This document shows positions 3,797-24,136 of a stretch of DNA of 24,136 nt, piece after piece. The notes below the pieces were generated by a model. It did no database searches. It had not been told where the DNA came from and worked only from the letters and a program-made list of their open reading frames with translations. Source of the stretch: a virus (lineage: Duplodnaviria; Caudoviricetes). Position 1 is the stretch's first letter; every line of letters begins with the position of its first letter. A program made the position numbers and the translations under genes. The stretch lies in IMG/VR virus record IMGVR_UViG_3300030372_003469, positions 1 to 24,136 of that record. One strand, 5' to 3'.

Positions 3797-4004
3797 AGTT
3801 GCTAAAGAACCAATAGTTGATTCAGATGATGATATATCTGCCGATAGATTAAAAAACGCAGCAGCTACAAAAAAGTTAGCAATATTCGATGCTTTTGAAA
3901 TACTTACTAGAATACAACAAGAAGAAGATATGTTAAATGATAGTAAGTCTAAAGATAATAAAGAAAAGTCTTTTAAAGGTTTTGCAGAAGGGAGGTCTAA
4001 ATGA
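3729..4004 (+). CDS. Putative terminase small subunit
   Basis: 91-aa helical protein directly upstream of terL and coupled to it by an ATGA overlap. Function inferred from synteny. Confidence 0.5.
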   Translation: MKTKETKLNIIQAGRKAVEELIKVAKEPIVDSDDDISADRLKNAAATKKLAIFDAFEILTRIQQEEDMLNDSKSKDNKEKSFKGFAEGRSK

Positions 4005-6223
4005 AATACGAGCAAAATTTAGTTAGGGTATTAAAAGATTATATAAAGCCTCATACTATAAATAAAAATAATAGATATAATAAATGGCAATATGGTTATA
4101 ATAAAGATCATGACATTGTAGTTATATCTAAGACTGGAAAAATCGGTGAAATATACGAAATACAAAATCTTAAAATAGCTTTACCGTTAATAGAAAAAAG
4201 TTATAAAAGATCTAAAAAAGAAACAGAACAATATTGGGAACCGTTAGAATACCCAAAAGAATTAAATAAAATAAAATCTGTTTTTGAATGGGAAGATTAT
4301 CCAAGTGAATTTAAAAACAAATGGTATGATTACATTGATGAAGAGTTTAAAAAAAGAGAAGAGGGTTTTGCATTTAATAACAAAGGCGTTCCTACTTATA
4401 TTACTGGCTCTCATTACATGTACTTGCAGTGGACCAAGATTGATGTTGGGCACCCAGATTTTAGGGAATCAAACAGATTATTCTTCATATTCTGGGAGGC
4501 TTGCAAGGCAGACAAACGTTGTTACGGAATGTGCTATCTTAAGAATAGAAGATCTGGATTTTCATTCATGTCATCGTCTGAGTTGGTGCATCAGGCAACA
4601 ACATCAAGGGATGCAAGGTTTGGTATATTATCCAAGACAGGATCTGATGCTAAGAAGATGTTTACAGATAAGGTCGTACCAATTTCCATTAACTACCCCT
4701 TCTTTTTTCGTCCCATACAGGACGGAATGGACAGGCCGAAGACAGAACTTGCGTACAGGGTCCCGGCGAGTAAATTCACAAGAAAGAAGCTCGACTCGAA
4801 GGAGAAGCTTAAGGAGATAGAAGGTCTAGATACAACTATTGATTGGAAAAACACAGGAGATAACTCTTATGATGGTGAAAAGCTAAAGTTATTAGCACAT
4901 GATGAATCAGGTAAATGGGAAAGACCTGACAATATATTAAATAACTGGAGAGTTACAAAAACAACATTAAGACTAGGTTCTAGAATTATAGGTAAATGTA
5001 TGATGGGTTCAACGTCAAACTCATTAGATAAAGGCGGCGATAATTTTAAAAAACTATACTATGACTCAGATGTCAAACGTAGAAACCGCAATGGACAAAC
5101 AAGCTCGGGATTATATTCTTTATTCATACCTATGGAATGGAACTACGAAGGATATATTGATATGTATGGAGCACCTGTCTTTGAAATTAGCAATGAAAAA
5201 GCATATGACCGCTATGGCGATGAAATAGATATAGGCGTAATAGAATATTGGCAAAATGAAGTAGACGGCCTTAAAGATGACCAAGACGGTTTGAATGAAT
5301 ATTATAGACAATTTCCAAGAACAGAAAGTCACGCATTTAGAGATGAGGCAAAATTATCTTTATTTAATCTAACTAAGATATACGAACAGATAGATTATAA
5401 CGACGAAATACAAAGACAAGGAGTTGTTACCGTTGGTAGTTTTCAATGGAAAAATGGTATAAAAGATACAACTGTAGAATTTATGCCAAATAAATCTGGA
5501 AGATTTAAAGTTAGTTGGGTTCCAAAATTAGAAATGCAAAATAGAATGCGTTTGCAAAATGGTATAAAATATCCAGCTAATGATCATATAGGCGCATTTG
5601 GATGCGATAGTTATGATATATCCGGCACAGTAGATGGTATAGGTTCAAATGGTGCTTTACACGGTCTTACAAAATATTCAATGGAAGAAGCTCCATCTAA
5701 TAGTTTTTTCTTAGAATATGTAGCAAGACCACAAACTGCTGAAATATTTTTTGAAGATGTACTTATGGCATGCGTTTTTTATGGTATGCCAATATTAGTT
5801 GAAAATAATAAACCTAGACTTTTATATCATTTTAAAAGAAGAGGCTATAGAGGTTACTCTATGAATAGACCGGATAAATCTTATAATAAATTATCCGCTA
5901 CAGAAAAAGAAATAGGTGGAATACCAAATTCATCAAATGATGTAAAGCAGGCTCATGCTGCAGCTATAGAATCCTATATTGAAAAACACGTAGGAATAAT
6001 AGAAGATGGATATGGTGATATGTATTTTACAAGAACATTAGAAGATTGGGCTAAGTTTGATATAAACAATAGAACAAAGTTTGATGCTTCGATAAGTTCA
6101 GGATTGGCAATAATGGCATGTAATAAAAACTTATATGCTCCAACTCAAGAAAGACAAGTCAGAACTATAAATCTTGGTATTAAAAGATATAACAACAAAG
6201 GTTCAAGATCAAAAATAATTTAA
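4001..6223 (+). CDS. terL: Terminase large subunit
   Basis: 740 aa. Walker A-like LKNRRSGFS, Walker B LLAHDESGKW, motif III GSTSN, nuclease motifs FGCDSYD, LVENN and FDASISSG. Lies upstream of the portal. Confidence 0.92.
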   Translation: MKYEQNLVRVLKDYIKPHTINKNNRYNKWQYGYNKDHDIVVISKTGKIGEIYEIQNLKIALPLIEKSYKRSKKETEQYWEPLEYPKELNKIKSVFEWEDYPSEFKNKWYDYIDEEFKKREEGFAFNNKGVPTYITGSHYMYLQWTKIDVGHPDFRESNRLFFIFWEACKADKRCYGMCYLKNRRSGFSFMSSSELVHQATTSRDARFGILSKTGSDAKKMFTDKVVPISINYPFFFRPIQDGMDRPKTELAYRVPASKFTRKKLDSKEKLKEIEGLDTTIDWKNTGDNSYDGEKLKLLAHDESGKWERPDNILNNWRVTKTTLRLGSRIIGKCMMGSTSNSLDKGGDNFKKLYYDSDVKRRNRNGQTSSGLYSLFIPMEWNYEGYIDMYGAPVFEISNEKAYDRYGDEIDIGVIEYWQNEVDGLKDDQDGLNEYYRQFPRTESHAFRDEAKLSLFNLTKIYEQIDYNDEIQRQGVVTVGSFQWKNGIKDTTVEFMPNKSGRFKVSWVPKLEMQNRMRLQNGIKYPANDHIGAFGCDSYDISGTVDGIGSNGALHGLTKYSMEEAPSNSFFLEYVARPQTAEIFFEDVLMACVFYGMPILVENNKPRLLYHFKRRGYRGYSMNRPDKSYNKLSATEKEIGGIPNSSNDVKQAHAAAIESYIEKHVGIIEDGYGDMYFTRTLEDWAKFDINNRTKFDASISSGLAIMACNKNLYAPTQERQVRTINLGIKRYNNKGSRSKII
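4326..4820 (+). CDS. Candidate overprinted lipoprotein in the +1 frame of terL
   Basis: Stop-free for 178 codons from 4284, with ATGs at 4326 and 4338. Basic N-region, hydrophobic AFLLILLALIT, then Cys (4419/4425). Coincides with a GC-rich island of terL. Confidence 0.6.
   Translation: MITLMKSLKKEKRVLHLITKAFLLILLALITCTCSGPRLMLGTQILGNQTDYSSYSGRLARQTNVVTECAILRIEDLDFHSCHRLSWCIRQQHQGMQGLVYYPRQDLMLRRCLQIRSYQFPLTTPSFFVPYRTEWTGRRQNLRTGSRRVNSQERSSTRRRSLRR
5061..5228 (+). CDS. Candidate overprinted 55-aa protein in the +1 frame of terL
   Basis: MTQMSNVETAMDKQARDYILYSYLWNGTTKDILICMEHLSLKLAMKKHMTAMAMK*. A-rich leader ttttaaaaaactatactATG. Atypical terL codons (GTC, CGT, CGC, TCG) in the overlap. Confidence 0.4.
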   Translation: MTQMSNVETAMDKQARDYILYSYLWNGTTKDILICMEHLSLKLAMKKHMTAMAMK

Positions 6224-6227
6224 ATAA

Positions 6228-8648
6228 ATGATTAATAAAGCTATAAAAAGTTCTTTTCCCAGCCAAGCGGTTAGTGATTTAGAAAAAATGAGTGCAGAAT
6301 ATGGTGCGCAGGTGGGTAGAGCTATAGAGCATGAATGGTTTAACTCTAAAGATGGGTATAGTGGTAAAAATGGGTCGGGAAGATATATGACATCAAGACA
6401 ATCTTTTCATTCATTAAGATTATACGCAAGAGGAGAACAATCTGTTAGAAAATATAAAGATGAATTATCTATAAATGGTGATTTATCTTACATGAATCTT
6501 GATTGGAAACCCGTTCCAATTATACCAAAGTTTGTTGATATAGTTGTAAATGGTATGGCAGATAGATCTTATGACATAAAAGCATATTCCCAAGATCCTG
6601 CATCGATAAAAGAAAGAACAGACTATGTAACAAAAATAGCGGAAGATATGGCGGCCCAGCCATTTAACGACGCTGTTGCAGTTCAACTTGGTATTGATAT
6701 ATATCAAACAGATCAAGACAAATTACCTGAAACTTCAGAAGAGTTAGAATTACATATGCAGCTTGAATATAAGCAGTCTATTGAAATAGCTGAAGAAGAG
6801 GCTATTAATAGTGTATTTGATAAAAATAAATATGAATTAATATCTAGGCGTATTAATAATGATTTAACAGTTATAGGTATTGGTGCTGCAAAAAGCACTT
6901 TTAATAAAGCAGAAGGTATTAAAGTTGAGTATGTAGATCCTGCTGATCTTATATATTCAAATACTGATTCCCCTTATTTTGATGATATATACTATGTGGG
7001 TGAAGTAAAAGAAATATATTTAAATGAATTAAAAAAAGAATTTCCTGAATTAACAGATGAACAATTAGAATCTTATAAAGGCTATAGTACATCTTATACG
7101 TACACAGGATATAATTCTAAATCAAATGAAAATAACAGCGTAGCTGTATTATATTTTGAATATAAAACTTATGCTAATCAAGTTTATAAGGTAAAGAAAA
7201 CAGCAACCGGAGGTGATAAAGCTATTGAAAAAAATGACACTTTTAATCCACCAAATTCAGATGATTTCAGTAAAGTCGATAGAGCCATTGAGGTTATATA
7301 TGAAGGTGTTAAAGTTATAGGTAGCAATGAAGTTCTTAAATGGGAACTTAAGAAAAATATGATGCGACCAAAAGCAGATACTACAAAAGCTCAAATGAGT
7401 TATGCTATCTGCGCACCTAGAATGTATGAAGGAAGAATAGAATCGCTTGTTAGTCGTATGACTAATTTTGCAGATATGATTCAGTTAACGCATTTAAAGC
7501 TACAACAGGTATTATCAAGAGTTGTACCAGACGGTGTTTATTTAGATGCTGATGCTTTAGCTGAAATTGATTTAGGCAACGGAACAAATTATAATCCTCA
7601 AGAAGCATTAAATATGTATTTTCAAACCGGTAGTGTTATTGGTAGATCAATGACTCAGGACGGTGATATGAATAGAGGAAGATTACCAATTACAGAACTT
7701 AACTCTAGTGGTGGTAATAATAAAATAAGCGCATTAATAAGTACGTATAATTACTATTTACAGATGATGCGTGATGTAACTGGTTTAAATGAAGCCAGAG
7801 ATGGAAGTATCCCAGATAAAAACGCTTTAGTTGGATTACAAAAATTAGCAGCCGCTAATTCTAATACAGCAACAAGGCACTTATTGCAATCAAGCTTGTT
7901 TATAACCCTATCAATGGCAGAGTGTATTGCAATGCGAGTGTCGGATGTTATAGAATATTCTCCTACTAAAGAATCTTTTATAAAAACTTTAGGTAAGTTT
8001 AATGTTTCTACTTTAGAAGAAATGGCAAACTTGCATTTACATGACTTTGGTATATTCTTAGAGCTAGCTCCAGATGAAGAAGAAAAGCAAAAATTAGAAA
8101 ATAATATTCAAGTTGCTTTGCAGTCTGGGCAAATATATTTAGAAGATGCTATAGAAGTTAGAGAAGTGCGTAATATAAAATTAGCGAACCAGCTTCTTAA
8201 AATACGTAGAAGAAAGAAACAACAATTAGATCAAGAGCAACAACAAAGAAATATACAAGCTCAAACGCAATCTAACTCACAATCTGCTCAGGCTGCGGCT
8301 CAAGCTGATATGCAAAAACAACAAGCATTAACAGAATCTAAAGCTCAGTTAGAACAAATTAAAAGCCAATTAGAAATAGCAAAACTTGAAAGAGAAGCTG
8401 CTATAAAGAAAGAGTTAATGGAAGCGGAGTTTAATTTTAACATGCGCCTAAGTGAAATGCGCATTAAAGAAGTTAATCAAAAAGATAAATTTAAAGAAGA
8501 TCGTAAAGACGAAAGAACAAAAATACAAGCATCACAGCAAAGTGAGCTTATAGATCAAAGAAAAAATAACGCACCGCCTAAAAACTTTGAATCCGCAGGA
8601 ATGGATAACTTAGGTGGATTTGGGTTAGAACAATTCGAGCCTAGATAA
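6228..8648 (+). CDS. Portal protein
   Basis: 806 aa, between terL and scaffold/MCP. Contains PIIPKFVDIVVNGM and MMRDVTGLNEARDG motifs and a long Q/A-rich C-terminal coiled coil like podoviral portal barrels. Confidence 0.88.
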   Translation: MINKAIKSSFPSQAVSDLEKMSAEYGAQVGRAIEHEWFNSKDGYSGKNGSGRYMTSRQSFHSLRLYARGEQSVRKYKDELSINGDLSYMNLDWKPVPIIPKFVDIVVNGMADRSYDIKAYSQDPASIKERTDYVTKIAEDMAAQPFNDAVAVQLGIDIYQTDQDKLPETSEELELHMQLEYKQSIEIAEEEAINSVFDKNKYELISRRINNDLTVIGIGAAKSTFNKAEGIKVEYVDPADLIYSNTDSPYFDDIYYVGEVKEIYLNELKKEFPELTDEQLESYKGYSTSYTYTGYNSKSNENNSVAVLYFEYKTYANQVYKVKKTATGGDKAIEKNDTFNPPNSDDFSKVDRAIEVIYEGVKVIGSNEVLKWELKKNMMRPKADTTKAQMSYAICAPRMYEGRIESLVSRMTNFADMIQLTHLKLQQVLSRVVPDGVYLDADALAEIDLGNGTNYNPQEALNMYFQTGSVIGRSMTQDGDMNRGRLPITELNSSGGNNKISALISTYNYYLQMMRDVTGLNEARDGSIPDKNALVGLQKLAAANSNTATRHLLQSSLFITLSMAECIAMRVSDVIEYSPTKESFIKTLGKFNVSTLEEMANLHLHDFGIFLELAPDEEEKQKLENNIQVALQSGQIYLEDAIEVREVRNIKLANQLLKIRRRKKQQLDQEQQQRNIQAQTQSNSQSAQAAAQADMQKQQALTESKAQLEQIKSQLEIAKLEREAAIKKELMEAEFNFNMRLSEMRIKEVNQKDKFKEDRKDERTKIQASQQSELIDQRKNNAPPKNFESAGMDNLGGFGLEQFEPR

Positions 8649-8679: not shown

Positions 8680-9903
8680 ATGTCACAAGAAAATCAACAA
8701 ATTGAAGAGGTTGTTGAAGATACTGTTGTAGAAAATAATGAAACAACACAGGCTGAAACAACTGAAAAAGAAATTTCTTATAAAGAAGTAAAAGAAGATG
8801 GGACTATAAAATTAGACCTTGGAAAATTAAAAGAATTTAAAAACCAAAAAACAGATAAAGATGCCGTTCAAAAGCAAAGCGCAGATGACAGCGATGCTAC
8901 TATCGTCGAACCCAAAAACACGTCAAGCAGCGAAGAGGTGGCTGAAGAAGTACGGGAAACCAAAGAAGAAGAAGTAGTATTACAAGAAGTATCTGATGAG
9001 GAAGAAGAAATAAAACAACCGCAAGTTGAGTCAACACAACCTGAGGTAATAGAAAAAACAGAAGTTGCTCCGCAAAAAGCTTTACCAGAAAATATTGAAA
9101 GTCTGGTCAAATTTATGGAGGAAACGGGTGGAAGTATAGAAGAATATGTTAGATTAAATGCCGATTATTCAAATGTTGATAACAATACATTATTAAAAGA
9201 ATATTATAGGTCAACTAAAAGTCATTTAGATAATGACGAAATAAACTTTTTAATTGAGGATAGATTTTCATATGATGAAGATGTAGACGATGATAGAGAT
9301 ATTAAAAAGAAAAAGTTGGCAATGAAAGAAGAAATTGCAAAAGCTAAAAAGTTTCTTAATGGTATGAAAGATGAATATTACAAGGAAGTCAAGTTGGGTT
9401 CTAAGTTATCATCTGAACAGCAAGAAGCTATTAACTTTTACAATCAATACAACCAAGAACAAGCTGCTGCTAGTGAAGTTCAACAAAAACAGTACAAGCA
9501 ATTTGAGCAAAGTACCAATAATGTTTTTAACGAAAATTTCAAAGGTTTTGATTTTAAAGTTGGAAACAAAAAATATAGGTATAATGTAAAAAACGCAAGT
9601 GATGTTAAGAATTACCAAAGCGACATATCTAATTTTGTGAGGGAGTTCCTCGACGAAAATGATATGATGAAAGACGCTAAAGGTTATCACAAAGCTTTAT
9701 ATGCTGGTAAAAACATTGATAAAATTGTATCACATTTTTATGAGCAAGGTAAAGCTGATGCTATAAAAGAAACCGCTTTAAAATCAAAGAATATTGATAT
9801 GGGAGCTAGAACTGTTAAACCAGTTGTAGAAGCCGGCGGGATGAAAGTTAGAGTATTAGGCGGAGAGAATAGTTCAAAGTTAAAATTTAAAATAAAAAAA
9901 TAA
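8680..9903 (+). CDS. Capsid scaffolding protein (putative)
   Basis: 407 aa with a very acidic disordered N-half, helical C-half and basic C-terminal tail (KLKFKIKK). Located between portal and MCP. Confidence 0.75.
   Translation: MSQENQQIEEVVEDTVVENNETTQAETTEKEISYKEVKEDGTIKLDLGKLKEFKNQKTDKDAVQKQSADDSDATIVEPKNTSSSEEVAEEVRETKEEEVVLQEVSDEEEEIKQPQVESTQPEVIEKTEVAPQKALPENIESLVKFMEETGGSIEEYVRLNADYSNVDNNTLLKEYYRSTKSHLDNDEINFLIEDRFSYDEDVDDDRDIKKKKLAMKEEIAKAKKFLNGMKDEYYKEVKLGSKLSSEQQEAINFYNQYNQEQAAASEVQQKQYKQFEQSTNNVFNENFKGFDFKVGNKKYRYNVKNASDVKNYQSDISNFVREFLDENDMMKDAKGYHKALYAGKNIDKIVSHFYEQGKADAIKETALKSKNIDMGARTVKPVVEAGGMKVRVLGGENSSKLKFKIKK
8861..8977 (+). CDS. Overprinted 38-aa basic peptide (MPFKSKAQ type) in the +1 frame of the scaffold gene
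   Basis: MPFKSKAQMTAMLLSSNPKTRQAAKRWLKKYGKPKKKK*. Has its own A-rich leader. GC is 50/100 in 8861-8960 versus 23/100 in 8761-8860 (hand count). Confidence 0.7.
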   Translation: MPFKSKAQMTAMLLSSNPKTRQAAKRWLKKYGKPKKKK

Positions 9904-9922: not shown

Positions 9923-11401
9923 ATGGGATTTAATACATCTTTAGGATTAGGTGGATCATTTTCACTTACTCCACACCCAACAGCAGATGTTTTATCTACA
10001 AACTATATTAGTTTTGTTGATGGAAGTGCTGATTGGTCACAACAATATCTACCTGAATTGTACGAGCAAGAAGTAGAGCGTTACGGAAACCGTACTATCA
10101 GTGGATTTTTACAAATGGTAGGCGCTGAAATGCCTATGAGTTCTGATCAAGTTGTTTGGTCTGAGCAAAACAGATTGCACATTGCATATAAGAGTGCTGG
10201 TGCTGCTGGAAGTGCAACAAGTGTAGAGGTAGAAAGTGCTTCTGGTAACACTATTTCGCTTGGTACTTCATTAAACAACTCTTTAAGAGTTGGTGATACA
10301 GTATTAGTTACTGATGCTGCTACTGGACTTAAAACTTTAAAGTGTTATGTATCTACTACCGCTGCTTCTGCTACACAAACTGCAGGTCAAGGAGCTGGTA
10401 ATACAGATGCTACTTTATTGCCTTATTCTAAAGCTGCTATGACAGGTACTTTTGCTGACAACGATCAGTTGAATATATTTGTATACGGTAAAGAATTTGC
10501 TAAAGGAAGTGCTAGTCAATCAGGTGAGCTTAAGCCACAATTCCAACAGTATAACAACAAGCCAATAATTATTAAAGATCACTTTAAAATTAATGGTTCT
10601 GATACTGCTAGAATCGGATGGGTTGAAACTACTGACGAAGCTGGACAAGTAGGATACTCTTGGTATTTAAAGTCTGCTGGAGAAACTAGATTACGTTTTA
10701 TGGATTACTTAGAAACTTCATTAATCGAAGCTGAAAAAGGAGCTAGTGCTTCATTAATTCACGATGCTTCAGGAGGTTTAGGAGTAACTCAGCCAGGCGA
10801 TGTAGGTACAGAAGGTTTATTCTCTGCTATTGAAACTAGAGGTAACGTATTTGAAGATTTAGCTTCTCTTGGAGATTTTGACTTATTGTTAAAAAATCTT
10901 GACAAGCAAGGTGCTATCGAAGAAAACATGTTATACTTAAACAGATCAATGGCTCTTACTTTTGACGATATGGTAGCTGGTATCAACGCTAACTATCAAG
11001 GTGGTGCTTCTTTTGGAGTATTTGACAATGACGCTGATATGGCATTAAACTTCGGTTTTTCTGCTTTCAGAAGAGGATCTTACGATTTCTACAAGTCAGA
11101 TTGGAAATACTTAAATGATGCTGCTGCTCGTGGAGGATTTGGAGATATTTCAGGAGTATTAATTCCTGCTGGAACTTCAACTGTATACGATCAGTCATTA
11201 GGTAAAAACATGACACGTCCTTTCTTGCACGTACGTTACAGATCTTCAGAAACTGATGACCGAAGAATGAAATCTTGGGTAACTGGTTCTGTAGGACAGG
11301 CTAGCTATGTAGGAGATGACTTCATGGAAGTACACTACTTATCTGAAAGATGTTTAATAGTTCAAGGTGCTAACAACTTTGTATTGTTAAAAGAATCATA
11401 A
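9923..11401 (+). CDS. Major capsid protein
   Basis: 492 aa, follows the scaffold. Motif QQYLPELYEQEVERYGNRTISGFL...SDQVVWSEQ.RLH and C-terminal EVHYLSERCLIVQGANNF. Codon usage typical of high expression (TTC, AAC, TAC, CGT). Followed by a hairpin. Confidence 0.88.
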   Translation: MGFNTSLGLGGSFSLTPHPTADVLSTNYISFVDGSADWSQQYLPELYEQEVERYGNRTISGFLQMVGAEMPMSSDQVVWSEQNRLHIAYKSAGAAGSATSVEVESASGNTISLGTSLNNSLRVGDTVLVTDAATGLKTLKCYVSTTAASATQTAGQGAGNTDATLLPYSKAAMTGTFADNDQLNIFVYGKEFAKGSASQSGELKPQFQQYNNKPIIIKDHFKINGSDTARIGWVETTDEAGQVGYSWYLKSAGETRLRFMDYLETSLIEAEKGASASLIHDASGGLGVTQPGDVGTEGLFSAIETRGNVFEDLASLGDFDLLLKNLDKQGAIEENMLYLNRSMALTFDDMVAGINANYQGGASFGVFDNDADMALNFGFSAFRRGSYDFYKSDWKYLNDAAARGGFGDISGVLIPAGTSTVYDQSLGKNMTRPFLHVRYRSSETDDRRMKSWVTGSVGQASYVGDDFMEVHYLSERCLIVQGANNFVLLKES

Positions 11402-11437: not shown

Positions 11438-11441
11438 ATAT

Positions 11442-11476
11442 AAAAACCAAAAACTAAAAACTAAAAACTAAAAAAA
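11442..11476 (+). repeat. 7-nt tandem repeat (AAAAACY) x4 plus a partial copy in the translation leader
   Basis: AAAAACC AAAAACT AAAAACT AAAAACT AAAAAAA directly before the ATG at 11477. Confidence 0.85.
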
Positions 11477-11860
11477 ATGGAAAAATATTTATATTTTAGA
11501 ACTCAAGCTACTTTAGCAGATGATGATGATATAGCACAATCAGCTATGTTCCCAGCTTCTTCTTTCGCAGGATGTTACCCAACAAGTGATACAGCTCTTA
11601 CTGTATGCTTTAAAAGTGTTAACAACCACGATGGAGCAGACGCAGGATCAAATGCAGTAATAGTTTCTGACACTGTTGTATTAACTGTTGGAACTAACAA
11701 ACATAAAGAAGCTATGAGAGCGATAGTTGATGCTATCGTAGGTAATACTTTTTCAAAAGCATCTTTTATTTCAGTAATTGATGATATTGATGGAACTGGT
11801 ATTGCTACTGGCGTTATTTCAGCTTGTGGTGCTATTACTATAGCAGCTACTGCCTCGTAA
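11477..11860 (+). CDS. Putative minor capsid/decoration protein
   Basis: 127 aa, rich in small residues. Sits right after MCP and before a strong terminator. Function inferred from position. Confidence 0.6.
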   Translation: MEKYLYFRTQATLADDDDIAQSAMFPASSFAGCYPTSDTALTVCFKSVNNHDGADAGSNAVIVSDTVVLTVGTNKHKEAMRAIVDAIVGNTFSKASFISVIDDIDGTGIATGVISACGAITIAATAS

Positions 11861-19933: not shown

Positions 19934-21514
19934 ATGGCAATAGAAACAACAAGAAGATCATCATATACTTCTCCTGTAGAAGCAATACCAGATTATGGTG
20001 CTTTTAGTAGAGGTTTTGCGCGAGGCATTCAGCCCGGTTTAGACTTTTTAAAACAAAAAGAAGAGCGAGAAGCAATTGATAAAAAAAGACAGGAGCTTTT
20101 AGGTCAAAAAAAATTAGAAGCATTTGACTCTATAAAACTTTTTAACCAGCTAGATACAAAAGCTACTGATATGATAGATTGGGATCCAAACTATTATACT
20201 CAGCAAAGATTAGTTAATGTTTTAAAATCAAGAAGAAGCGATTTTGTAAATGCTATTGCAGCAGGTGACGAAGAATTGCAAAAGAAAATATTGTCTGAAG
20301 TTTCTGTAATGAGTATTGGTTCAAATAATTTTAATAAATTATTACAAAAAGCAACAGAGGAGGGTTATGATTTAGACGCTAGCAACACTACCGTATCTCA
20401 AATACAAGTTGATGGTAAATTGCAAAATGTTACTTTACAAGACTTAGCAAGATTAAATAAACAAAACCCAGAAGCTTTTGATTACAATGTTAAAGAAGGG
20501 AAGTATGGTAATCAATCTTTATTTTTAGATGTTAACTATAACGGGCAGCAAGTTAGTTTAAATTTATCTGAATTATCTGATGCTAGAATAGAAGATATGT
20601 TTGCTTTAAATGCAGATATTCCAAGCTTAACTAACCAATATAATAAAGAAAATAAAGTTTCCCCTATAGAATCAAAATCTATAGAAACAAAAATAGAAAA
20701 CGGAAAATTAGTAACAAACACAGTCAATAGATTAGCCGGTGTATCTGAAGAGGCTTATGAAATAGCTGCTAATAATTTTGCTACAGCAACAGTTACTGCT
20801 TCTAGTTTTGCAGAGTTAAAACCTTCTTTATTAAGACAAGCTTTAGAGCAGGAAGATATGCAGGGATATTTCAATTTTAAAGACTCAGAAGGTAAAGTAA
20901 GTAACTTGAAAGACATGTTGGCTTATCTACAAACTGAAGACGGTATAAAAGATTATGCTGAAGAAAAAAATCTTACTGAAGATCAAGCTAGAAAAAAAAT
21001 AAGTGATGATGTTGACAATTTATTAAAAAAATCTTTAGTTAACATTTATTTATCAAGAACTGGTAGACACTCATTTAATAAAAAAACAGGTAAATACGAG
21101 CCAAAAGCAATTCTTAACAGTGTTCAAAAACCTATAAACGAAATAACTGTAGACGAATTTCAAGGACTATATAATTCAGTGTCTAATGAGTTAGATAAAA
21201 ATCCTAAATCATTTATAGATAGCGATTATCAATTAGGTGAAAAAACGGGGACAATAAGAAACATTGAAATAATTACTAGAGAAGGAACAGGAAAAGCGGA
21301 TACAAATGTAAATAAAATTAGAGTTTATCCCGTTAGATTAGTTTCAGGTAAAGAAGTAAAAATGGATCCAATAATAATAGACTTAGATAACATAACTGAA
21401 AGAAGAAATTTTATAATAAATACTTTTGGAAAAATTCCTAGTGATTTAAGAAGTTCTTTATTAAAACAAGGAATAAAAGCTCCTTTACCTATATTCAACC
21501 AAGAAAAAAATTAA
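19934..21514 (+). CDS. Putative internal virion protein
   Basis: 526 aa, hydrophilic and helical, lying between the pilot-like gene and the large gene. Confidence 0.55.
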   Translation: MAIETTRRSSYTSPVEAIPDYGAFSRGFARGIQPGLDFLKQKEEREAIDKKRQELLGQKKLEAFDSIKLFNQLDTKATDMIDWDPNYYTQQRLVNVLKSRRSDFVNAIAAGDEELQKKILSEVSVMSIGSNNFNKLLQKATEEGYDLDASNTTVSQIQVDGKLQNVTLQDLARLNKQNPEAFDYNVKEGKYGNQSLFLDVNYNGQQVSLNLSELSDARIEDMFALNADIPSLTNQYNKENKVSPIESKSIETKIENGKLVTNTVNRLAGVSEEAYEIAANNFATATVTASSFAELKPSLLRQALEQEDMQGYFNFKDSEGKVSNLKDMLAYLQTEDGIKDYAEEKNLTEDQARKKISDDVDNLLKKSLVNIYLSRTGRHSFNKKTGKYEPKAILNSVQKPINEITVDEFQGLYNSVSNELDKNPKSFIDSDYQLGEKTGTIRNIEIITREGTGKADTNVNKIRVYPVRLVSGKEVKMDPIIIDLDNITERRNFIINTFGKIPSDLRSSLLKQGIKAPLPIFNQEKN

Positions 21515-21530
21515 GAAAAAATTTAATAGC

Positions 21531-24136
21531 ATGTATAACTATAAAGGTATTAATTATACTATAGATCAAATTAACCAGGCAGCAGAGGAATCAAATCTTT
21601 CGGTTGATGATTATATAAAAAAACTTAAAGAATCTGATCCAGACCCTAAACAAAAGATTTCAGATGCAGACTTGCTTGATCCAACAACTTTTCAAACAGG
21701 TGCTCCAGCGGGTGTGGGTGTAGCACCGGACCCAACTGCAGCACCAAAAGATACGGAATTAGTTTCGGAAGATATTTCTTTGGAATCACAAGAAAAAATT
21801 GATATACCTACTAGCAAAGATATAAAATATAAAACGCCTTTAACTGTTGATCAAAAAAGTAAGCTACCTTATAGAGTTGCTCAACAATTGATTAAAGAAA
21901 ATAATTTTACTCTTGAAAGAGTAAAAGAAGTTGATCCTACTTATAAACAAGCTGATGTAACATTTAAAGAAATTCAAGAAAATATAAAAAATTTTCCTCA
22001 AAAAGAAATAGACAAAACTTTTTATGATTTATATTTCAAACTTGATGATATACCTGTAATTAGCGAAGAAAGAGGCGGTAGGCTGGAGGATTTTAGAGTT
22101 ACGAAAACATTTATGCCAATAGAGCAATATTTAGGCAAAGAAAAATATGAGCAATATTTACAAATTGAAAGAGGTGAAGAAATAAAGCCGTATTCTATTG
22201 AAAACGCTAAACAAATTACTAAAATAAAACAATTTGAAGCACCTAATAAGGCAAAAGATAAATATTTAAAACTTTATTTACGAAATGTTCCTGAAGATGT
22301 TCAAGAAAAAATAGAAATAAAATATGCTAAAAACTACCCTAGCTTAGAAGATGCTAATTATTCTTTAGATTGGTATTCAAATGAAGTAGAAAAAGGTATA
22401 GAAGATTATAATAATTCTTATGATACTTATCTAAAAAACATGAAGCCTACTCTTGATAGGTTAGATGTAATAAAAAATACTATATCTAAAATAACAGAAG
22501 GTACTATGAAACCTTCCGAAAAATTATCAGAAGAACAATTAAATAATTTTAAAAATTTAGCAACAGAATATAATAATCTTTATGAAAAATATAAATCAGG
22601 TGATTTTGGAGATTATATAGATGGATTAAATAAACAAAAAGATCTTATTAATTTTAATATAGAAGAATTAAAAAATAAAAGCCAAGATTTAAATAATAGA
22701 GAAATAATAGAAAAAGCTATTGGTTTAGACTATAGTTTTTCTACTAGATTATCTATGGCAATGGAAGATTTTTTTGTTAAAGGAGCTATAAACACAGGGT
22801 CTTTATCTTCTCAATTATTATTAACAGCTAAAAAATATGTTTCAAACCCTAATTTTTATCCAATATTTGATAAAGCAATAAACACTATAAAAGAAAATAC
22901 AATAAATTATAATGCTAGACTAGCTGAAAAAAGAGAAACTACTATACCAGAAGCTTTAAAACTTGAAGATATTGGGAAAGCTGGTGTAGGTATTTTTGAT
23001 TGGGTTAATGAAGCTTTCGCAGAAAATAGCCCTTCTATAGTAACTACTGTTATCCCAGGTGGTGCGGCTCTTACTGCTAATAGAAAGCTTATGCTAGCAG
23101 GAATGAGAACGGCTCAAGGAATATTTTTTGCAACAGAAACCGGTAGTAAATATGGGGACTTAGAACTTGAAGAAAAAAATGCTAAAGAAAAAATAATATT
23201 ATTAAAAGCTGAATTATCAAAAACTGAAGATTTAAATAGAAAATTAGAAATACAAGAAGATATAAATCATTTAGAAAAAATTAGTAACTATAGTTTTGCA
23301 CAAAAAGCTTTTACATCTTATGCTTACGGTGGTACCGCTACTTTTTTCGAAAGTGTGGGGTCTTTAAAATTTGTACAAGGAACAGCAAAATTAGCAAAAG
23401 ATTTTGGAAAGCAACAATTTAAAAAAGAATTTTACGAAAAAGGATTTAATTTTACTAAAAACACAGTGGGTAAAACATTGTCAGGTTTACCTAAATTAGC
23501 TTTTGATGCTACCGCTATAAATACAATAGAAGAAACTTTAACTTTAGGTGGGCAAAACGCTTTTGATATTATTGTTTTAGATGATAATAAAAGTATTTTT
23601 GACGGTATTGATAAAGACTTTTTTGCCAACAATGTAGTTGCTACTTTTGGAATGTTTTCTCCAAGAGCAGGGGGTAATATAGTTAATATAATTAAAAATG
23701 AATTTAAAACTAAAAGCGAGGTTGATAATGTTAATAAAAGAGTTATTGAATTAGTAAACCTTAGAGAATCTATGCCTAATCTTTCCGGTAGAGAGTTACA
23801 AGAAGCTAAAGTTAGGAAAAATGAACTAATAGAACAGCTAGCGTTAGATGATGCTTTGTCTTATCAAAAATTAACAGCTTTAAACCAAAATCAAATATTA
23901 GAAGCGGCTGATTTGTCAAGACAAATGAGACAAGTTTTAAAAAGAGCACAGACTATTGGTGTTACTGGGGATTTATCAAAATCTGGTAAAAAGTCAAGAA
24001 AAGATCTTGAAGATCAATATGTTGCTTTAAATAAAAGAAGAACTGAAATTTTAAATACTAAAAAATCTAAAATTAATGAAGATGTTAAAAAGCTACAGGA
24101 AGAACTAGGTGGTGAATTTGTAAACACAAATCCAGC
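21531..24136 (+). CDS. Large putative internal virion protein, 3'-truncated (at least 868 aa; absent from the ORF track)
   Basis: ATG at 21531 (MYNYKGINYTIDQINQAAEESNLSVDDYIKKLKE...). The frame reads open in the segments I translated, including the window end, and no terminated ORF is listed here in the track. Confidence 0.85.
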   Translation, partial: MYNYKGINYTIDQINQAAEESNLSVDDYIKKLKESDPDPKQKISDADLLDPTTFQTGAPAGVGVAPDPTAAPKDTELVSEDISLESQEKIDIPTSKDIKYKTPLTVDQKSKLPYRVAQQLIKENNFTLERVKEVDPTYKQADVTFKEIQENIKNFPQKEIDKTFYDLYFKLDDIPVISEERGGRLEDFRVTKTFMPIEQYLGKEKYEQYLQIERGEEIKPYSIENAKQITKIKQFEAPNKAKDKYLKLYLRNVPEDVQEKIEIKYAKNYPSLEDANYSLDWYSNEVEKGIEDYNNSYDTYLKNMKPTLDRLDVIKNTISKITEGTMKPSEKLSEEQLNNFKNLATEYNNLYEKYKSGDFGDYIDGLNKQKDLINFNIEELKNKSQDLNNREIIEKAIGLDYSFSTRLSMAMEDFFVKGAINTGSLSSQLLLTAKKYVSNPNFYPIFDKAINTIKENTINYNARLAEKRETTIPEALKLEDIGKAGVGIFDWVNEAFAENSPSIVTTVIPGGAALTANRKLMLAGMRTAQGIFFATETGSKYGDLELEEKNAKEKIILLKAELSKTEDLNRKLEIQEDINHLEKISNYSFAQKAFTSYAYGGTATFFESVGSLKFVQGTAKLAKDFGKQQFKKEFYEKGFNFTKNTVGKTLSGLPKLAFDATAINTIEETLTLGGQNAFDIIVLDDNKSIFDGIDKDFFANNVVATFGMFSPRAGGNIVNIIKNEFKTKSEVDNVNKRVIELVNLRESMPNLSGRELQEAKVRKNELIEQLALDDALSYQKLTALNQNQILEAADLSRQMRQVLKRAQTIGVTGDLSKSGKKSRKDLEDQYVALNKRRTEILNTKKSKINEDVKKLQEELGGEFVNTNP

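Follow-up and report, generated by a model that had tools for sequence, protein, structure and literature searches.

The window, by which we mean the whole 24,136-nucleotide stretch analysed from a Caudoviricetes record (IMGVR_UViG_3300030372_003469), carries on its plus strand a head module comprised of a terminase large subunit gene (4001..6223; phrog_6681, E 2e-162), a portal gene (6228..8648; phrog_6547, E 3e-141), a gene for an acidic protein of 407 aa with a pI of 4.8 (8680..9903), and a gene for a virion structural protein (9923..11401; phrog_13704, E 5e-93), which based on its size and position is probably the major capsid protein. The third of these, hereafter the host gene, is located directly downstream of the portal gene and directly upstream of the probable capsid gene, a position that makes it a probable head scaffold gene. 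A preliminary description of this locus had called its product a scaffold, and the label stands in part: position, acidity and an extended, helical model speak for it, but searches of PHROG, Pfam and the PDB, the last also with the structural model, placed it in no family, and the viral matches in its fold search were unnamed or uncharacterised. The Elemovirus homologue is labelled 'structural protein'. In the model of a homologue of the host protein (L001), residues 56-84 and 92-114 have a pLDDT below 50 and are followed by a conserved helical core. The annotated phages matching the host gene are restricted to Elemovirus, Cellulophaga and Maribacter phages and one uncultured phage, so that the bacterial host is probably a flavobacterium. 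The sequencing runs that contain the stretch are marine metagenomes, and its share in RNA runs is at most 0.13.

Several other features of the window were recorded. A free-standing gene with DUF6321 (1892-2179) encodes a basic protein of 95 aa, the second small basic protein of the genome. A nearly identical AT-rich stretch of about 20 nt is found upstream of the starts at 8680 and 11941; the starts of 34 scaffold homologues are preceded by a strongly conserved version of its 3' part, and it is possibly a late promoter or an initiation element. An open frame of 886 codons, probably a giant virion gene, extends from about 21480 to 24136 and runs off the window end; neither of the two peptide profiles discussed below matches the part of it that is present.

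Wholly inside the host gene and in its +1 frame, an ORF of 38 aa (8861-8977, plus strand) overlies host residues 61-100, a region of the host protein most of which is predicted to be disordered. The encoded peptide of 4.4 kDa contains 13 Lys and Arg residues, has no Asp or Glu, displays a pI of 11.4, and belongs to an MPFKS family that is linked to phrog_1375. The preliminary description had reported this basic ORF, and the sequence it gave was recovered, as was the rise in GC at the peptide ATG, from 23 of the 100 nucleotides upstream to 50 of the 100 downstream. It had also pointed to atypical scaffold-frame codons, in agreement with the codon adaptation of the host frame, which has its minimum in the overlap (0.43) and ranges from 0.53 to 0.87 in the remaining 17 scoring windows. 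The peptide is predicted to form two helices (residues 6-13 and 18-31) followed by a lysine tail (pLDDT 83.6), and fold searches with this model gave no match at E<=0.001. Profile matches of the peptide to PDB entries only added up weak similarities to beta-propeller repeats, and they were discarded.

The ORF is preceded by an A-rich translation-initiation region (8841..8860, plus strand) that has no Shine-Dalgarno sequence and carries adenines at -3, -6, -12 and -13. A Shine-Dalgarno-like word occurred in none of 55 nested starts of the family, and A was present at these four positions in 83, 88, 79 and 79% of 48 distinct nested starts; for the 193 other +1 ATGs of that region the figures are 47, 46, 54 and 33%. 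In a study on F. johnsoniae (PMC6847099), A at each of these positions is described as a positive determinant of initiation. Among the homologues, the wobble positions of the host frame are constrained in the eight codons before the peptide ATG (0.121). The A-rich leader noticed in the preliminary description is thus a start context of the peptide's own, and the peptide is likely translated from its own AUG. The 13-mer within that leader, put forward as a signal shared with the gene at 11477, did not hold up, being found upstream of one of 55 nested starts, the window's own, and not being conserved. Its exact copies are located at 8838 and 11441, the first ending 10 nt ahead of the peptide ATG and the second 23 nt ahead of the start at 11477; allowing up to one mismatch there are four matches, compared with 0.49 expected. 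The second copy sits among short tandem TAAAAAC-like repeats (11441-11474) before the gene at 11477.

Conservation and selection in the peptide frame

The nested ORF was followed through 80 homologues of the host gene, the best of 600 that had been confirmed. The same peptide family was found at host codons 39-72 in 40 of these 80, and an unrelated basic peptide at the same spot in 14. With two truncated loci taken out, a +1 ORF of at least 25 aa with an ATG start at codons 30-75 was present in 64 of 78 homologues, compared with 2 to 18 of 78 for seven other windows of the host gene. The basicity of the frame says nothing by itself: in 13 linkers devoid of an ORF, Lys and Arg likewise make up 40% of the +1 frame. 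Met1 and Pro2 are invariant in the family, and aromatic residues are conserved.

Selection was assessed on 15 disjoint pairs picked by a host-core identity of at least 70%; the first position of a host codon is the wobble position of the peptide frame. Differences per host codon position 1, 2 and 3 amounted to 0.227, 0.115 and 0.157 in the overlap, to 0.230, 0.124 and 0.336 in the linker that follows it, and to 0.108, 0.059 and 0.271 in the host core; variation in the overlap is shifted onto the peptide's wobble position. Position 1 exceeded position 3 in 11 of the 15 pairs in the overlap and in 3 of the 15 in the linker. Changes silent only in the +1 frame numbered 131 in the overlap, against 73 silent only in the host frame; the corresponding counts in the linker were 107 and 204. 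An estimate of pN/pS (0.25 for the peptide and 1.11 for the host protein) was set aside and replaced by the 15-pair test, because its pairs had been picked by peptide similarity and it was therefore biased.

The peptide ORF thus lies wholly inside another gene, is under purifying selection and keeps its start and stop among homologues, and we consider 8861-8977 almost certainly a real gene. The preliminary description had proposed to compare start, stop and silent variation across scaffold homologues, a comparison in which the ORF was kept and the overlap selected in the +1 frame; and the outcome it had named as fatal, homologues lacking the +1 ATG and no stand-alone copies of the peptide, is contradicted by the 64 of 78 homologues with an ORF and by the free homologues described below.

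Two readings would dispense with an independent gene. The ORF might be the shadow of a conserved acidic host motif, given that acidic linkers of themselves yield a basic +1 frame and that the host-frame residues recur in giant virion proteins; this reading, the least probable of all those considered here, is largely refuted by the variation on the peptide's wobble position and by the presence of the same peptide where no host frame is open. Barely more probable is a +1 frameshift in the A-rich stretch, which would give a scaffold N-terminus with a basic tail. A-runs are present upstream of the ATG, and five proteins (P0024, P0032, P0074, P0081 and P0084) join a scaffold-like N-terminus to the peptide, although they may equally be assembly errors; the invariant Met1 and Pro2, the free homologues beginning at the same Met, and the agreement of the upstream adenines with initiation determinants all argue for a separate start.

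Distribution of the MPFKS family

A profile of 61 members matched 3,672 clusters at 50% identity (E<=1e-3), and in nearly all of the best 150 representatives the match begins at residue 1. Viral loci were sampled by start pattern, 120 for MPFKSKAQM and 120 for MPFKSE[KA]QR. With the former pattern, 70 copies were nested in a scaffold homologue, 6 in frames of more than 1,000 codons, and 37, with short flanks, in an open frame of no assigned identity; the last seven were free (L087, L163, L187), truncated, frameshift-like or other. With the latter, 63 were nested, 50 were scored as free (three of them cut by contig ends), and 7 were at the beginning of or inside long ORFs. The family spans phages of several host phyla as well as bacterial contigs.

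Stand-alone homologues, which the preliminary description had mentioned, exist both in viral loci and in annotated phages: the profile detects free copies in FlowerPower, Indlulamithi, Barnyard, Weiss13, 023Pt_psg01 and Patience, and unannotated copies in S-CBS2, P-RSP2, Troje and C75C1. In the cultured Elemovirus and in a Manatee Spring phage, a giant virion gene harbours the peptide, unannotated, in its +1 frame, and the scaffold homologues of these phages (339 and 357 aa, respectively) are shorter and do not carry it. Nesting was further observed in several giant genes, some of which are not detectably alike (L220:4001-4165, L369:4001-4156, L091, L093, L103, L110, L140 and L148); these cases include a phage with a G+C content of 54% and a contig from a Syntrophomonadaceae bin, and they suggest repeated independent nesting. 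Matches to Klebsiella and Escherichia capsid proteins and to a Gordonia lysin (E 2-5) were taken as chance.

The link to phrog_1375 is through the family: 33 of the 61 aligned members (19 of 37 in a smaller set) matched it, and hhalign of the family against the actinophage members of phrog_1375, which form its core and include Patience gp10 (E 1e-31) and Barnyard gp9, gave a probability of 96.6. The window's own peptide gave no match to phrog_1375 at E<=0.1 or E<=0.05, and reaches its profile only via relatives. Similar to Patience gp10, Barnyard gp9 and Indlulamithi gp3, it has an F-K-S-K-x-Q...A..W/A...L-P core, a basic tail and a location in the head module; unlike these genes, which are free-standing, annotated and provided with basic N-terminal extensions, it sits in a shifted frame inside another gene. 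The family profile did not match Patience gp4 (PMC11965321), and that paper makes no mention of gp10. In two ESM Atlas feature searches the nearest named clusters were of DUF3008 (PF11450; scores 0.84 and 0.88), carried by 37% and 14% of the members of those clusters and a lead only; the assignment was rejected, as Pfam searches with the 61 aligned members, with another 44 homologues and with the window gave no match to it.

Of the 53 matches in bacterial genomes, 30 represent a subfamily with long tails of Lys, Arg, Ser, Thr, Ala and Pro, mostly from Gemmatimonadota and Acidobacteriota (L375, L381-L388, L390, L392, L393, L396-L398, L400-L411, L413, L414 and L416). We take this tail to resemble histone H1. 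The neighbours in the 10 loci scanned comprised no phage structural genes and one integrase, which indicates that the module can work outside a capsid; five members of the subfamily were scanned against Pfam and gave no match.

An exchangeable slot in the acidic linker

The second type of peptide at the nested position matches DUF7230 in 6 of 12 members, is unrelated to the MPFKS peptide (hhalign 0.07), and displays the same +1-frame selection pattern in six of six pairs. The ribosome-rescue factor ArfA was rejected as a relative, with no ArfA among the Pfam matches of either peptide type or among the PDB matches; the second type matched no PDB chain. DUF7230-like peptides were observed in the +1 slot or in tandem after the first peptide (L023, L031, L033, L041, L045, L047, L052, L055-L057, L071, L073, L077 and L078), and outside the scaffold gene (L328 and L336). 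Additional small basic +1 ORFs at or after the slot include a Cys-Gly-Cys type, a type ending in AFSRR, and second tandem ORFs (L001:3107-3199, L002:3179-3283, L024:2771-2908, L027:3206-3286, L028:2081-2173, L030:2975-3058 and L065-L067). The slot, which is mostly located about 12 codons after a conserved host motif, is occupied by at least four unrelated peptides, or by none.

The distribution of the family was mapped on a quick host-core tree of 78 rows. Presence of the MPFKS peptide requires 16 changes on this tree, at least 12 of them forced by strong branches; several sister pairs differ in its presence, and the two closest relatives of the window carry a different peptide. Both peptide types occur in tandem in six rows, and 13 of the 76 scaffold rows have no nested ORF. 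Host proteins with and without the peptide measure 406 and 403 aa, respectively. A copy elsewhere was found in none of five records without the nested one, a result that shows little because the records are partial (54-78% complete) and the search missed a cysteine-bearing subtype known in L010.

The preliminary description regarded the peptide gene as overprinted in the scaffold gene. De novo overprinting would leave a nested frame that arose later than its host gene and has a more restricted distribution; here the peptide family is much more broadly distributed than the host gene and its linker, so the order is probably the reverse, and the peptide gene likely predates the overlap. The host residues over the peptide would then be largely a by-product, and the acidic linker would be a slot in which an old basic-peptide gene has settled and whose contents are swapped or lost through recombination. 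Since a Lys-rich frame, read one base upstream, is rich in Glu, Gln and Lys and poor in stops, small basic genes may be cheaply tolerated in acidic disordered linkers.

Out-of-frame nested genes are known in phages, such as phiX174 E in the scaffolding gene D and lambda Rz1 in Rz. The peptide gene resembles these in being a small gene on the same strand, in a shifted frame and with its own start, and phiX174 E shares with it a location inside a scaffold gene. It differs in that E and Rz1 are fixed lysis genes, whereas here the gene encodes a soluble basic peptide, belongs to a family that also occurs free, and occupies a swappable slot. No description of this arrangement was found in the mostly open-access literature on the motif, the linked families, Elemovirus and nested small phage genes.

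Function of the peptide

The preliminary description offered as one role a packaged protein that neutralises DNA, and a DNA-binding basic peptide packaged in the head is also what we consider most likely, giving it about an even chance. The peptide is small, strongly basic and encoded in a head-module gene; for presence in virions, the single particle spectrum of Patience gp10 (see below) is weak evidence. The phiX174 J protein and the internal peptides of T4 are basic DNA-binding core proteins. Like these, the peptide is very small, basic and encoded among head genes, and by analogy the same role is proposed; it has no sequence or fold match to them. Terminase, portal, scaffold, protease or capsid genes were found near 26 of 40 family loci and in 8 of 18 independent neighbourhoods, and no head gene was recognised in the other 10 (distances up to 4 kb; raw counts). 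The homologue directly follows the portal gene in Indlulamithi, Weiss13, L366 and L367; in L259 it is fused to a Nudix/maturation-protease-like protein between the portal and downstream head genes. FlowerPower gp48, located between a peptidase and a holin, speaks against a head role. Both kinds of nesting host are head or virion genes, which we count in favour of a head role.

That unrelated basic peptides share one slot fits a role based on charge; the invariant Met-Pro start and the conserved aromatic residues point to a specific partner and not just to charge. In the favoured reading, flavobacterial ribosomes would initiate internally on the late mRNA of the head genes, and the short two-helix core and lysine tail would bind the packaged genome and offset its charge, perhaps easing condensation or ejection. 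Pope et al. 2014 (PMC4324244) count gp10 of mycobacteriophage Patience among the virion proteins, with one stringent spectrum from particles versus four and two from infected cells, and its small basic neighbours gp111, gp12 and gp16 have 33, 33 and 7 particle spectra. The spectra show that the homologue is expressed and only hint at packaging. Trypsin would undercount a peptide of this kind.

The bacterial subfamily and the invariant N-terminus pull towards a specific or cellular target. The foremost competitor of the packaged peptide, though a rather unlikely one, is a real gene whose product targets host machinery during infection, be it the ribosome, RNA polymerase or the nucleoid, and stays out of the virion. 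Members of the subfamily have housekeeping-type genes as neighbours on bacterial contigs, the module almost always forms the very N-terminus, the DUF7230-like peptide has an ArfA-like tail, and the Patience gp10 spectra are more numerous in cells than in particles (PMC4324244); against this, free copies cluster in head modules, and the second peptide is unrelated to the first and matches neither ArfA nor a PDB chain. In T4, a capsid-targeting sequence provides the model for a prohead-targeting leader, and the MPFKS module might similarly dock on the coat or portal and carry cargo, with the 38-aa form being the leader plus a basic tail. Among the best 150 representatives, 38 are proteins of at least 105 aa that begin with the module, and in 35 of these a KxA/KS/E[SAG] motif follows within 14 residues, compared with 18.7 in shuffles, a pattern defined post hoc; such motifs are possible processing sites, and the fusion to a maturation-protease-like protein points the same way. 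However, the module co-occurs with unrelated capsid proteins (phrog_371, 1357, 3437, 14242 and 1328), it is present on bacterial contigs without capsid genes, and most fusion partners have no known function, which leaves a targeting leader improbable. Partners in the long fusion proteins (P0101-P0238) include DUF5661 and a ParB-like domain. A dedicated scaffold partner, produced in constant proportion to the scaffold from a shared mRNA as the preliminary description had also suggested, is very unlikely indeed. The slot is fixed in the scaffold gene and the charges of peptide and scaffold are opposite, as such a partnership would have it, but Elemovirus encodes the peptide in a different gene, other phage groups have it free-standing, and close relatives have swapped or lost it.

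A packaged DNA-binding peptide thus being the preferred reading, the broader picture can be drawn only tentatively, and we hold it to be doubtful, if somewhat less so than an action on a host machine: MPFKS/phrog_1375 would be an overlooked but widespread protamine-like core peptide of tailed phages, which abundant marine flavobacterial phages hide, together with several unrelated basic peptides, in an exchangeable +1 slot of acidic head-protein linkers, and soil bacteria would have domesticated the module, with its H1-like tail, as a nucleoid protein. Nested phage genes are already known as a kind; the present analysis adds a selection test on pairs picked by host core, the swapping on the host tree, the link to phrog_1375 with published MS for one of its members, and the bacterial subfamily. 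Stored viral stretches matching the two start patterns number about 900 and 2,500, of which most and about half, respectively, of those sampled are nested, and a conserved gene has likely been missed by annotation in hundreds to thousands of marine phage records. The locus also points to a route to gene overlap besides de novo overprinting, in which an old basic gene comes to lie in an acidic linker, where it fits since a shift of frame turns the one composition into the other. A family of 3,672 clusters whose function is unstudied becomes testable in cultured systems such as Elemovirus (grown on Flavobacterium BAL314) and Patience (on M. smegmatis), and with it the wider question of how common it is for tailed phages to package protamine-like peptides along with the genome.
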